43,036 nt of DNA, from the sequence record KY684082; one strand, given 5' to 3'. The notes below the pieces were generated by a model that saw nothing but the letters and a program-made list of their open reading frames with translations, had not been told where the DNA came from and ran no database searches. This DNA comes from Shigella phage SFN6B. The position numbers and the translations under genes were made by a program. Positions 28,745 through 31,429 of this stretch are shown here, piece after piece. The number at the start of each line of letters is the position of its first letter. Position 1 is the first letter of the stretch.

Positions 28745-31429
28745 ATGCCTGTAATTCAACCCAACCGACAGGGCCTAAATATCGGCGGCGTGCAATTGCA
28801 GGCCAACGAGGTTAACTTGCCCTCTACAGTCGGGGATGTAGTAGTAGACACGCCCAAAGCAAACCGCCTTGCAGCACTTTCTGGCTTCGTCCAGGACTTC
28901 GGTATAGGGTTTGATGCAGCAGTAAAAGAAAATGCAGCAGCAGCCACTGTGCGAGGTGCTATGGACGCCCAGGGTGCAGTAGATGCAATGGCCTCTAAAG
29001 ATGAGGCAGTACAGAAGCAGAATATGTTTGTACGAGAAGCCTACCAGGATGGTTATGTATCTGCTGCGGCCTACGATTCTCTAGCTAAGTGGCGCACGGA
29101 TAGTATTACTCGCGCTAAGAAGGCAGCTGAGGCTGGGCTGACTGATGAAGAGTTCCACCAGCAGGAGCAAGAGCATGTCCAGGCTATGTCTGACAAGCTC
29201 GGTATGTATCTTCCGGATATGTCCAAACAGTCCGCTACGGCGGTACTGCAACAGCTCCGTGCAACCAGCTTAGCTAACTATACGGCCTTCCAGAAGGGTC
29301 GCGCAGAGTTTGCGGTAGTACAAGCAGATCGTGCGCTGGACCGTGGGCTTAGCTCCTCTGTTGATGAGTTCTATCAGCGCCTGAATGCTGGGCAGGGTGC
29401 AGCAGCACAGATGTCAATTAAGACAGGACTGGATAGTATTCTAGCGGCTGAGCACCTGGATAAATCCAAGAAGCTAGACCGGGCCAAGCAGTACCTGGTC
29501 AGTGTAGCACAACAGACCCAGGACCCTTTAATCATCAACCAGTTGCAGGAGATGGCAACAAAAGAGCTGGGCGTCAATGCTGTAGACGTCAACGCTGCCT
29601 TGTATCAGGAATTTAAACGTGCTGGTACTCAGATTGAGACTCAGGCGCGCTTTGAAATCTCTGATGCAATCCAGTCTCTTGAGGGGCAATCCCCGGAAGA
29701 GCAAGAGCAGACAATGCAGTATATCCGCAACCGCGTGATTGAGCTATCTGCTACGGATGTACTGAGCCCTGGCACTAGTATGGAGTTCTGGAATAAAGCT
29801 CAGACTATTAGAGAGAAGGCTGCTGATACACAAGCATTACGCACAGCTATTACTGGTAATATCCCAAGCTCAACACTGGCAGGTATGTTCCAGGGAGATC
29901 TGGATAAGGCGCGTACGCAGATACTGAAGAACTTCCCAGACACTCCAGAGGGGAACTTGCAGCTACTGGCTTATGGTAGCAATAGTAAAGATGCGTGGGC
30001 CATCAATGAAGCACACAAGCGCATGTCCTCGGATATGGCGCGCACCCTCACTACACTGGACCAGTTAGGTGAGGATGGGCAGGTGTCCAAGGAGAATGTC
30101 AATAGCATCAACCTATGGGCCCAAGCATATAGCACCAGTACCGACTTAGGTAAGATGGCCCTGCTATCTGAGGTCCCATCTGAGTGGCAGGGGGTGGTTC
30201 AGAAGGCCATTGCACAGAACCCCAATAACGCTAGCAACACCATTCTGGACGACCTGCGTCGCCAGGCCCGTAACAAGGCTAGCGGGCGCTACAGCAACAT
30301 AAGTAGCAACCCCACAGATAAAATGGTGGATCCGAGTCACACTGCTAACTGGTTCAGCTTCTTCGGTACAGCGGACGCACAGCGCCAGGAAGCGCGCGCC
30401 GCTATGGAGGAAGAGTATCGGTACGTATATAATCACAACCCAGAGGCGTTAGTTGGTAAGGATCCTGATGATATCAACACGATGCTCAAAGGTAACATCC
30501 AAGCCCGTAAGCTGGAGTTAGATATCTCTGGGGCTCCTCGGCACGTGTACCTGCCAGCCGGGACTTCTATTCAATCCCTAATGGGGGATTATAGAGGAGA
30601 CCAGGAGCAGTTCAAGGCGTCTCTGCAACAGCAGATTCAGAGCCAGGTCAATGCCTTAACTGACCCTAGCAACCTTGAGCGCGTAGTAGTGCAGGCTGCT
30701 ACAGCAGGCAACTCAGCGCAGAACATGACTGTTACTGTATTCGACAAGAAGGGAACCTTCCAGACTATGTCAGTGAACCTGCGTGACGTTCAAACCACTG
30801 CGCAAGATGCATACAACAAAGCCCTAGCCGGTGAGATGAAGATTGGCAGTGAGCAAGTAGGTGTCCGTCCAGTTACCTTCTACGATCATGACAACGGCAG
30901 GGTTGTAAGTACGCAGGTCAATGGTCGTAATGGGGCTGGTGTAGAACCTTCTTTATTTAGTGAGATTCTCGCCAATACCATGCAGTTTGAGGGATTCCGA
31001 GAGGGTAAAGGCAACGGTAGTGTAGGCTTCGGCCTGCACAACAACTCCGGTATGCCTGTTCCGAAGAAAGTTACTATTGACGATGGTATTAGTATTCTGA
31101 AATCCTCCCTGGAGCAGCAGTACATCCCTAACGTGAACAAACAGTTGCGCGGGCAGGGCCTAAGTGCTTCTGCGGATGCTATGAAGGTCATGGTTGACTT
31201 GAACTATCATGGTGGCAACGGGAGTTCTGGCCCTGTAGCAGAGGCCGTGGCACAGGTACGTAAGGCATCTAAGACCCCTGTAGGGGCTTACCAGTATCCT
31301 GTATCGGAGGCCCAGGGTAAGGCTTGGCAAGCACTTCGCAATACCCCAGCTTACAAGCAGGCACAGCCTAAACGTAAGAAATATCTGGAGCAAGGACTGC
31401 GTAACTGGATGTTTGAGGTAACACACTAA
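28745..31429 (+). CDS. Internal virion protein (phiKMV gp36-like), possible C-terminal peptidoglycan hydrolase domain
   Basis: 894 aa (phiKMV gp36 recalled as ~898 aa with a C-terminal lysozyme domain); C-terminal segment LANTMQFEGFREGKGNGSVGFGLHN is a candidate glycosidase motif. Confidence 0.6.
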   Translation: MPVIQPNRQGLNIGGVQLQANEVNLPSTVGDVVVDTPKANRLAALSGFVQDFGIGFDAAVKENAAAATVRGAMDAQGAVDAMASKDEAVQKQNMFVREAYQDGYVSAAAYDSLAKWRTDSITRAKKAAEAGLTDEEFHQQEQEHVQAMSDKLGMYLPDMSKQSATAVLQQLRATSLANYTAFQKGRAEFAVVQADRALDRGLSSSVDEFYQRLNAGQGAAAQMSIKTGLDSILAAEHLDKSKKLDRAKQYLVSVAQQTQDPLIINQLQEMATKELGVNAVDVNAALYQEFKRAGTQIETQARFEISDAIQSLEGQSPEEQEQTMQYIRNRVIELSATDVLSPGTSMEFWNKAQTIREKAADTQALRTAITGNIPSSTLAGMFQGDLDKARTQILKNFPDTPEGNLQLLAYGSNSKDAWAINEAHKRMSSDMARTLTTLDQLGEDGQVSKENVNSINLWAQAYSTSTDLGKMALLSEVPSEWQGVVQKAIAQNPNNASNTILDDLRRQARNKASGRYSNISSNPTDKMVDPSHTANWFSFFGTADAQRQEARAAMEEEYRYVYNHNPEALVGKDPDDINTMLKGNIQARKLELDISGAPRHVYLPAGTSIQSLMGDYRGDQEQFKASLQQQIQSQVNALTDPSNLERVVVQAATAGNSAQNMTVTVFDKKGTFQTMSVNLRDVQTTAQDAYNKALAGEMKIGSEQVGVRPVTFYDHDNGRVVSTQVNGRNGAGVEPSLFSEILANTMQFEGFREGKGNGSVGFGLHNNSGMPVPKKVTIDDGISILKSSLEQQYIPNVNKQLRGQGLSASADAMKVMVDLNYHGGNGSSGPVAEAVAQVRKASKTPVGAYQYPVSEAQGKAWQALRNTPAYKQAQPKRKKYLEQGLRNWMFEVTH

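Follow-up and report, generated by a model that had tools for sequence, protein, structure and literature searches.

Does the large internal virion protein of Shigella phage SFN6B end in an enzyme that could act on the murein layer of the host after ejection? The question is raised by an open reading frame (ORF) in the sequence record KY684082, whose entire 43,036 nucleotides are referred to here as the window. The ORF starts with ATG, has 894 codons and stops with TAA, and its limits at 28745-31429 of the plus strand were confirmed as a preliminary description, made from the sequence alone, had placed them. That description had also compared the encoded protein with phiKMV gp36 in size and position, and had suggested a peptidoglycan hydrolase domain at its C-terminus.

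Identity of the 894-residue protein

It was found that the protein is a gp15-type ejection protein of a KP34-like podophage, an assignment strongly supported by database matches and by the architecture of its structural model. PHROG 2083 ("internal virion lysozyme motif") matched the protein from end to end (aa 1-893, E=0). Chain N of PDB entry 23sg ("gp11", 893 aa) was near-identical over a full-length alignment of 1748 bits, and a phmmer search aligned aa 29-539 with PhiM1 gp49 (8vb2_I, E=1.4e-9). The full-length AlphaFold model, which was obtained with a 30-sequence alignment and had a mean pLDDT of 81, consisted of a disordered N-terminus, a helical body, a beta-rich connector and a C-terminal globular domain (Table 1). 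The long body was predicted to be all-alpha and to fold like an ejection protein of known structure. The gene lies between gp14-like and gp16-like genes and 3' of the nozzle gene, which is the position of a gp15-type gene.

The conservation of the ORF shows it to be a genuine gene: 142 phage records matched it in megablast, 128 full-length orthologues were obtained in protein searches, and dN/dS was low. Klebsiella phage KPV811 (Drulisvirus, Slopekvirinae, Autographiviridae) has the gene at 95% nucleotide identity, and in many KP34-like phages of Klebsiella and Escherichia it is 86-94% identical.

In the solved relatives the gp15-type protein is packed in the capsid core, stacked with the gp14-like and gp16-like proteins, and is an octamer in PhiM1. 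An octamer in the capsid core and a proposed periplasmic tunnel after ejection have been described for the gp15-type proteins of T7, PhiM1 and Ar-KM, a phiKMV-like phage (PMC11440229; bioRxiv 10.64898/2026.05.18.726046; PMC8954989). The core location and tunnel role are known from relatives only, i.e. from the cryo-EM of PhiM1, from Ar-KM, and from the virion proteins of KP34 and SU503.

The likeness to phiKMV gp36 that had been proposed was borne out. Both phiKMV gp36 and Ar-KM gp42 are gp15-like periplasmic-tunnel proteins with a C-terminal T4-lysozyme-like domain. The phiKMV protein shares with the protein studied here its length (898 versus 894 aa), its architecture, C-terminal homology at the profile level and an NGxNSxG motif before the domain; it also occupies the same slot in the same order of nozzle, gp14-like gene, the gene in question and gp16-like gene.

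The motif before the domain, N-G-R-N-G-A-G (aa 726-732, 30920-30940), was among the best-conserved features of the whole protein. Only three columns of the full-length alignment of 30 sequences were invariant, G727 being one of them; N729 and G732 were near-invariant, and the NGxNxxG pattern was aligned also in phiKMV gp36 (MNGGNSAGM). This motif may act as a hinge or provide a contact with the tunnel body.

Fold of the C-terminal domain

Model and profile evidence strongly supported a T4/P22-lysozyme-type (GH24) fold for the C-terminal ~160 residues. When profile A3, built from 15 family sequences, was compared by hhalign with phiKMV gp36 aa 720-898, a probability of 93.4% was obtained (E=2.5e-7, 105 columns), indicating that a homologous domain of the gp36C type stands at the C-terminus of this gp15-like protein. 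The same profile matched the phiKMV-type 898-aa chain of 28sd/9sfd/9sfn with E=7.8e-5, and the GH24 muramidase 8b2s with E=0.02 over a region that spans the catalytic motif. A separate AlphaFold model of aa 684-894 was confident (pLDDT 90.7, pTM 0.83), and aa 735-894 were predicted to form the two lobes of a lysozyme fold. The top four structures in Foldseek were GH24 muramidases, although these matches were weak (E 0.07-0.4). The C-terminal lysozyme domain suggested beforehand thus gained support, and the absence of any predicted glycosidase fold, which would have spoken against it, was not what the model and Foldseek gave.

A chance Gly-rich motif in an unrelated helical domain might also be mistaken for a lysozyme, and several null results lean that way. 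Pfam and NCBIfam gave no lysozyme match with either the whole protein or its C-terminal 213 aa, and PF00959 did not match the latter even at E<=10; phiKMV gp36 itself is likewise without a Pfam match. PF00959 was the Pfam family matched by most members of the family (3/15), all below the threshold, with a best E of 0.0017. BLASTP against phiKMV gp36 was not significant (E=1.2), and neither was hhalign of the family profile against the single sequences of T4 lysozyme (E=0.41) and of the phage's own endolysin (E=0.44), comparisons that were uninformative, the single sequences being too divergent. The Foldseek values given above point in the same direction, and the 2011 KP34 paper reported no significant similarity of the KP34 orthologue to gp36 or to a lysozyme domain (PMC3082699). 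With the profile alignments to gp36 and the confident model on the other side, a spurious likeness is considered very improbable.

In an exhaustive hidden Markov model (HMM) search of 1.84 billion proteins, the C-terminal profile returned 16 cluster representatives, nearly all of them C-terminal in proteins of 870-940 aa; these were ejection proteins only, with no free-standing lysozyme relatives. Judging from this search, the module is narrow and specific to ejection proteins. A word-indexed search for homologues of the C-terminal 190 aa gave 7 fragments only. The C-terminal 190 aa were 100% identical to those of Escherichia phage EC22.5-2.

Active site and selection

The segment quoted in the preliminary description, SLFSEILANTMQFEGFREGKGNGSVGFGLHN, corresponds to aa 736-766 (30950-31042 in the window), and FEGFREGKGNGSVGFGLH is encoded by 30986-31039. 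The Glu singled out there turned out to be Glu749, which is near-invariant in ~128 orthologues and is indeed followed by a Gly-rich loop. It was aligned to the Glu of QFEAY in phiKMV gp36 and of EFEGF in the GH24 muramidase 8b2s, and in the model it closes the first helix (735-749), as Glu11 does in T4 lysozyme. The motifs FEG[FY] and G[ST][VI]GFG were essentially invariant among the ~128 full-length orthologues, lineages less than 30% identical included.

The spacing between these motifs was not the canonical one. The GH24 arrangement Glu-x8-Asp-x4/5-Ser/Thr is kept in phiKMV gp36 (EAYRGEAYKDADGYSVG), in the endolysin of the phage itself (EGLSLTAYKDSAGIPTI) and in P0142 (EGYRSKEYPDGKGMSVG), which of all family members is the most distant. 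The loop of the protein studied here has 4-5 residues fewer and contains no Asp (FEGFREGKGNGSVGFG, EGFREGKGNGSVG), and the same holds for nearly all of the KP34-like group. Compared with the E-x8-D-x4-S motif of phiKMV gp36 (QFEAYRGEAYKDADGYSVG), four residues including the Asp are deleted (QFEGFREGKGNGSVG). Of the classical triad, Glu and Ser/Thr are therefore retained, the latter as Ser759 in the strand that follows the loop, and Asp is gone.

The same short loop without Asp was found in PhiM1 gp49 (EGYTPSKGFSVLG, SYEGYTPSKGFSVLGVH), an "octameric ejection protein" with a lysozyme-like domain from Gly718 to Ser903 (PDB 8vb2; PMC11440229). This protein is only ~17% identical and comes from a Pectobacterium phage of another genus and host. 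Chain N of 23sg is essentially the same protein as that of SFN6B, its catalytic-motif region being identical except for N757K; a literature search found no paper on this entry.

The loss of Asp was not accompanied by signs of decay. Between SFN6B and KPV811, aa 735-894 differ by 49 synonymous and 0 non-synonymous substitutions (dS ~0.69), and the core, aa 735-830, differs from that of KpV74 by 31 synonymous and 0 non-synonymous ones. The dN/dS values were 0.03-0.06 for aa 1-700 versus 0-0.013 for aa 735-894, and aa 701-800 were the best-conserved blocks of the protein in distant relatives. On these substitution counts and the conservation of aa 701-800, the C-terminal domain is not decaying, and purifying selection on it is very strong.

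It was also observed that dS against KPV811 rises approximately sixfold from codons 1-700 (~0.12) to the last 160 codons (~0.69), where the two proteins are identical. Because of this jump in dS, the comparison suggests a recombination breakpoint near codon ~700-735, i.e. a mosaic exchange of the lysozyme-like module among KP34-like phages.

Proposed role in ejection

By analogy with the better-studied relatives, we consider that the lysozyme-like domain acts on murein via Glu749 after ejection, with a probability of about 0.6. After adsorption, the 894-residue protein would leave through the nozzle and refold into a periplasmic tunnel, whose outer face would bear a ring of lysozyme-like domains level with the murein layer, as has been modelled for Ar-KM. 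Glu749 might then serve as the general acid for local cleavage of MurNAc-GlcNAc bonds, so that the tunnel and the gp16-like protein could reach the inner membrane. Since the Asp loop is deleted while Glu749 and Ser759 are invariant, the sequence makes a single-Glu chemistry (lytic-transglycosylase- or goose-lysozyme-like) or slow hydrolysis most likely, and the classical inverting mechanism with Glu, Asp and Thr less so. A single catalytic Glu is found in lytic transglycosylases and in goose-type lysozyme.

The same virion-internal, murein-cleaving role at the murein layer has been proposed for the N-terminal lytic transglycosylase of T7 gp16 and for the gp15-like lysozyme domains of SP6, K1E and K1-5. 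T7 gp16 has a single catalytic Glu (E37). In T7, however, the murein module is on gp16 rather than on gp15 and belongs to the SLT/GH23 family (Pfam PF01464), of which the C-terminal domain studied here was not found to be a member. What sets the domain apart from the GH24 endolysins (T4 E, P22 gp19, P1 Lyz and E. coli RrrD; PF00959), the phage's own included, is that Pfam does not detect it, that the catalytic Asp is missing together with half of the beta-hairpin, and that it is fused to a 730-aa ejection protein, whereas the endolysins stand alone.

Several points weigh against an enzymatic role. The loop has neither the canonical Asp nor a conserved acidic residue in its stead, Glu753 being unconserved beyond close relatives. 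The domain does not reach the gathering score of PF00959, and the evidence for the fold is a predicted model. A literature search yielded no muralytic assay of a KP34-type protein; phiKMV gp36C is a thermostable muramidase, and activity has been measured only in this canonical phiKMV branch (PMC5380687). Moreover, the equivalent activity of T7 is dispensable except with highly cross-linked murein (PMC8954989), and an essential enzymatic role should therefore not be assumed.

The main alternative is a pseudoenzyme with a lysozyme fold that has ceased to cleave murein. It would serve as a murein-binding anchor or spacer that positions the tunnel, and/or have a structural part in the capsid core, where it might form a groove for the last-packaged DNA. 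The Asp-bearing loop is lost across the KP34/PhiM1-type lineage, PhiM1 gp49 included, the literature searched gave no activity data for KP34-type proteins, and the very strong purifying selection fits a binding or structural role equally. In PhiM1, density in a groove formed by these domains was attributed to DNA (PMC11440229). Nevertheless, a purely structural domain would have no reason to keep Glu749 and the G-S-V-G-F-G cleft motif across lineages less than 30% identical, catalysis by a single Glu is normal in the lysozyme fold superfamily, as seen from the lytic transglycosylase matches, and no other glycosidase was found among the ejection proteins of this phage. The pseudoenzyme is accordingly a serious but less probable explanation than murein cleavage through Glu749.

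The domain is not the lysis enzyme of the phage, because a separate lysis cassette contains a canonical endolysin and a spanin. A second endolysin, acting in lysis from within at the end of infection rather than in entry, would be compatible with the lysozyme fold and with the plain name "lysozyme" that the orthologue bears in some GenBank records. In addition to the phage's own PF00959 endolysin and Rz-like spanin, the fusion to a capsid-internal ejection protein, with neither a signal nor a SAR sequence, and the packaging of the protein in virions of relatives (PDB 23sg, 8vb2) make such a function highly unlikely.

Table 1. Coordinates in the window of the gene, its protein regions and neighbouring genes
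Feature	Position	Strand	Basis or remark
Gene for gp15-type (octameric ejection / periplasmic tunnel) internal virion protein, 894 aa	28745..31429	+	complete
Strong Shine-Dalgarno AAGGGGAAG	28733..28741	+	read from sequence; ends 3 nt ahead of ATG at 28745
Predicted disordered N-terminus, aa 1-57	28745..28915	+	pLDDT <50 in full-length AlphaFold model
Predicted all-alpha body, aa 58-590, homologous to PhiM1 gp49 aa 24-543	28916..30514	+	model secondary structure; phmmer to 8vb2_I
Predicted beta-rich connector, aa 591-733: strands 589-677, helix 679-702, beta-hairpin 708-725, then N726-G-x-N-x-x-G732	30515..30943	+	models
Predicted GH24/T4-lysozyme-fold domain, aa 735-894	30947..31426	+	
Glu749 codon, predicted catalytic general acid, C-terminal end of helix 735-749	30989..30991	+	near-invariant in alignments
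aa 750-758 (GFREGKGNG), shortened loop without canonical Asp (T4 lysozyme Asp20 equivalent)	30992..31018	+	4-5-residue gap versus phiKMV gp36, P0142 and own endolysin
Ser759 codon in invariant G-S-V-G-F-G (position of T4 lysozyme Thr26 / phiKMV Ser)	31019..31021	+	alignments
Nozzle gene	25762-28140		Pfam PF25675
gp14-like ejection protein, upstream partner (outer-membrane pore component)	28142..28729	+	Pfam PF24072 T7_gp14, E=2.6e-27
gp16-like tetrameric ejection protein, downstream partner, 1420 aa	31479..35741	+	PHROG 342; PDB 23sg_S, 8vb2_A, 9sfn_G
Phage's own canonical endolysin	40607..41218	+	PF00959, E=7.7e-19; PHROG 7; motif NEGLSLTAYKDSAGIPTICYG with Glu-Asp-Thr

The gp16-like neighbour

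Orthologues of the gp16-like protein have been labelled "internal virion protein with endolysin domain" or "peptidoglycan lytic exotransglycosylase". These labels were not supported here: in the protein encoded at 31479-35741 no SLT or lysozyme domain was detectable, and the Pfam scan gave a GNAT match only. Xylella phage Cota served as a positive control: the same scan detected an N-terminal SLT (E=1e-9) in its gp16-like protein, and its gp15-like protein (732 aa) had no Pfam match. According to the Ar-KM preprint, the murein-degrading domain is found either at the gp16 N-terminus or in the gp15-like protein (C-terminal or central), in a complementary manner (bioRxiv 10.64898/2026.05.18.726046). 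The presence of SLT in the gp16-like protein of Cota and its absence here fit this distribution. Within the reach of these domain searches, no module of the phage's ejectosome other than the C-terminal domain of the 894-residue protein has a glycosidase fold.

The gp16-like protein was found to contain a zincin-type signature. An HExxH...E module at aa ~419-720 (32733-33638) includes HELIH at aa 561-565 (33159-33173) and Glu608 (33300-33302). The residues H561-E-L-I-H565-A-A-T and E608 were invariant in eight lineages 22-41% identical, including phiKMV gp37 and PhiM1 gp48, with the pattern HE[LAS][IMV]HAAT. A profile of this region matched 11fw_A, a chain of an N4-type virion RNA polymerase (E=2.4e-8), in an alignment that includes HELVHAST. 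The HExxH region of the N4 virion RNA polymerase has been assigned to the zincin-like metallopeptidases, the hub domain of injected "polyvalent proteins" (PMC5512222; PMC13434306). The PhiM1 paper described the equivalent region as "endolysin/exotransglycosidase-like" (PMC11440229), and the HExxH motif is unmentioned in either ejectosome paper (PhiM1 and Ar-KM). By its conserved motif, the module carries the signature of a zincin-type metallopeptidase.

Ahead of this module, aa 218-418 (32130-32732) form an insertion of 201 aa in place of 13 residues of KPV811, which comprises a Thr/Ala/Ser-rich linker and a compact GNAT acetyltransferase domain. The Pfam match covered aa 311-401 (32409-32681; PF00583, E=1.2e-7), with the acetyl-CoA motif RGKGVG intact. 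Among 50,697 phage records, the only others with the insert were those of Escherichia phage ZH5 and of the Klebsiella phages myPSH1235 and KpV48, and four IMG/VR contigs have it as well; a word-indexed homologue search with the insert returned nothing. Going by its location, the acetyltransferase would be injected with the ejectosome, and the insert is in line with the concept of the "polyvalent protein" put forward by Iyer et al. 2017 (PMC5512222). No description of it for KP34-like phages was found. The gp16-like protein of Cota (2761-7233, 1490 aa) has, besides its N-terminal SLT, two sub-threshold GNAT-like stretches at aa 339-394 and 567-621, which raises the possibility that GNAT accretion into gp16-like proteins may have occurred more than once in the Autographiviridae. 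Free-standing GNAT genes adjoin the ejection module in other members.

Genomic setting

The local order of genes was tail tubular A, nozzle, gp14-like, the 894-residue ORF, gp16-like, HNH endonuclease, tail fibre, terminase, spanin, canonical endolysin and tailspike; the order in phiKMV is the same, with gp36 in the slot of the gene studied here. A GC-rich hairpin, GAGGCCC-TTCG-GGGCCTC (31432-31449, -15 kcal/mol), begins 3 nt past the stop codon, within the 49-nt gap before the gp16-like gene and without an adjacent T-run. It was not significant against shuffled sequences (z=-1.76), and a promoter and terminator scan of 28000-32000 gave nothing exceeding the shuffled expectation. At the same intergenic position a putative rho-independent terminator is annotated in Proteus phage PM16.

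The HNH endonuclease ORF (35698-36231; PHROG 99, E=9.5e-41) lies between the gp16-like gene, whose end it overlaps, and the tail-fibre gene. Enterobacter phage phiKDA1 has it too, but KPV811 lacks it at that position, and it is therefore probably a mobile homing-endonuclease insertion.

Implications

The lysozyme-like C-terminus proposed beforehand is correct and in substance already known, because PHROG and GenBank labels, the near-identical 23sg chain and the PhiM1 and Ar-KM papers all describe the domain; many GenBank records name the family "internal virion lysozyme motif". The value as a discovery is thus small, with two modest practical points, which concern the lysozyme label and the gp16-like label. 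The former rests on the fold and not on a canonical active site, and the use of such proteins as enzybiotics under the name "virion-associated lysin" presupposes an activity assay. As to the latter, the murein-enzyme labels of the gp16-like neighbour are unsupported in this phage group, and the conserved module has instead a zincin-type HExxH...E, shared with the N4 virion RNA polymerase.

More speculatively, and with considerable doubt, the KP34/PhiM1-type "lysozyme" could be a distinct and narrow branch of the GH24 fold that lost its Asp hairpin and whose chemistry now differs from that of phiKMV gp36: it would be a lytic transglycosylase with a single Glu, or else a murein clamp without hydrolytic activity. 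It might work beside the zincin-like module and, in this phage, the added GNAT domain of the gp16-like protein, in which case the ejectosome would be a multi-enzyme, "polyvalent" delivery device and not just a tube with a single lysozyme. What the present analysis adds, on a small scale, is the non-canonical active site of the KP34/PhiM1 branch, which has no Asp and is under very strong constraint.

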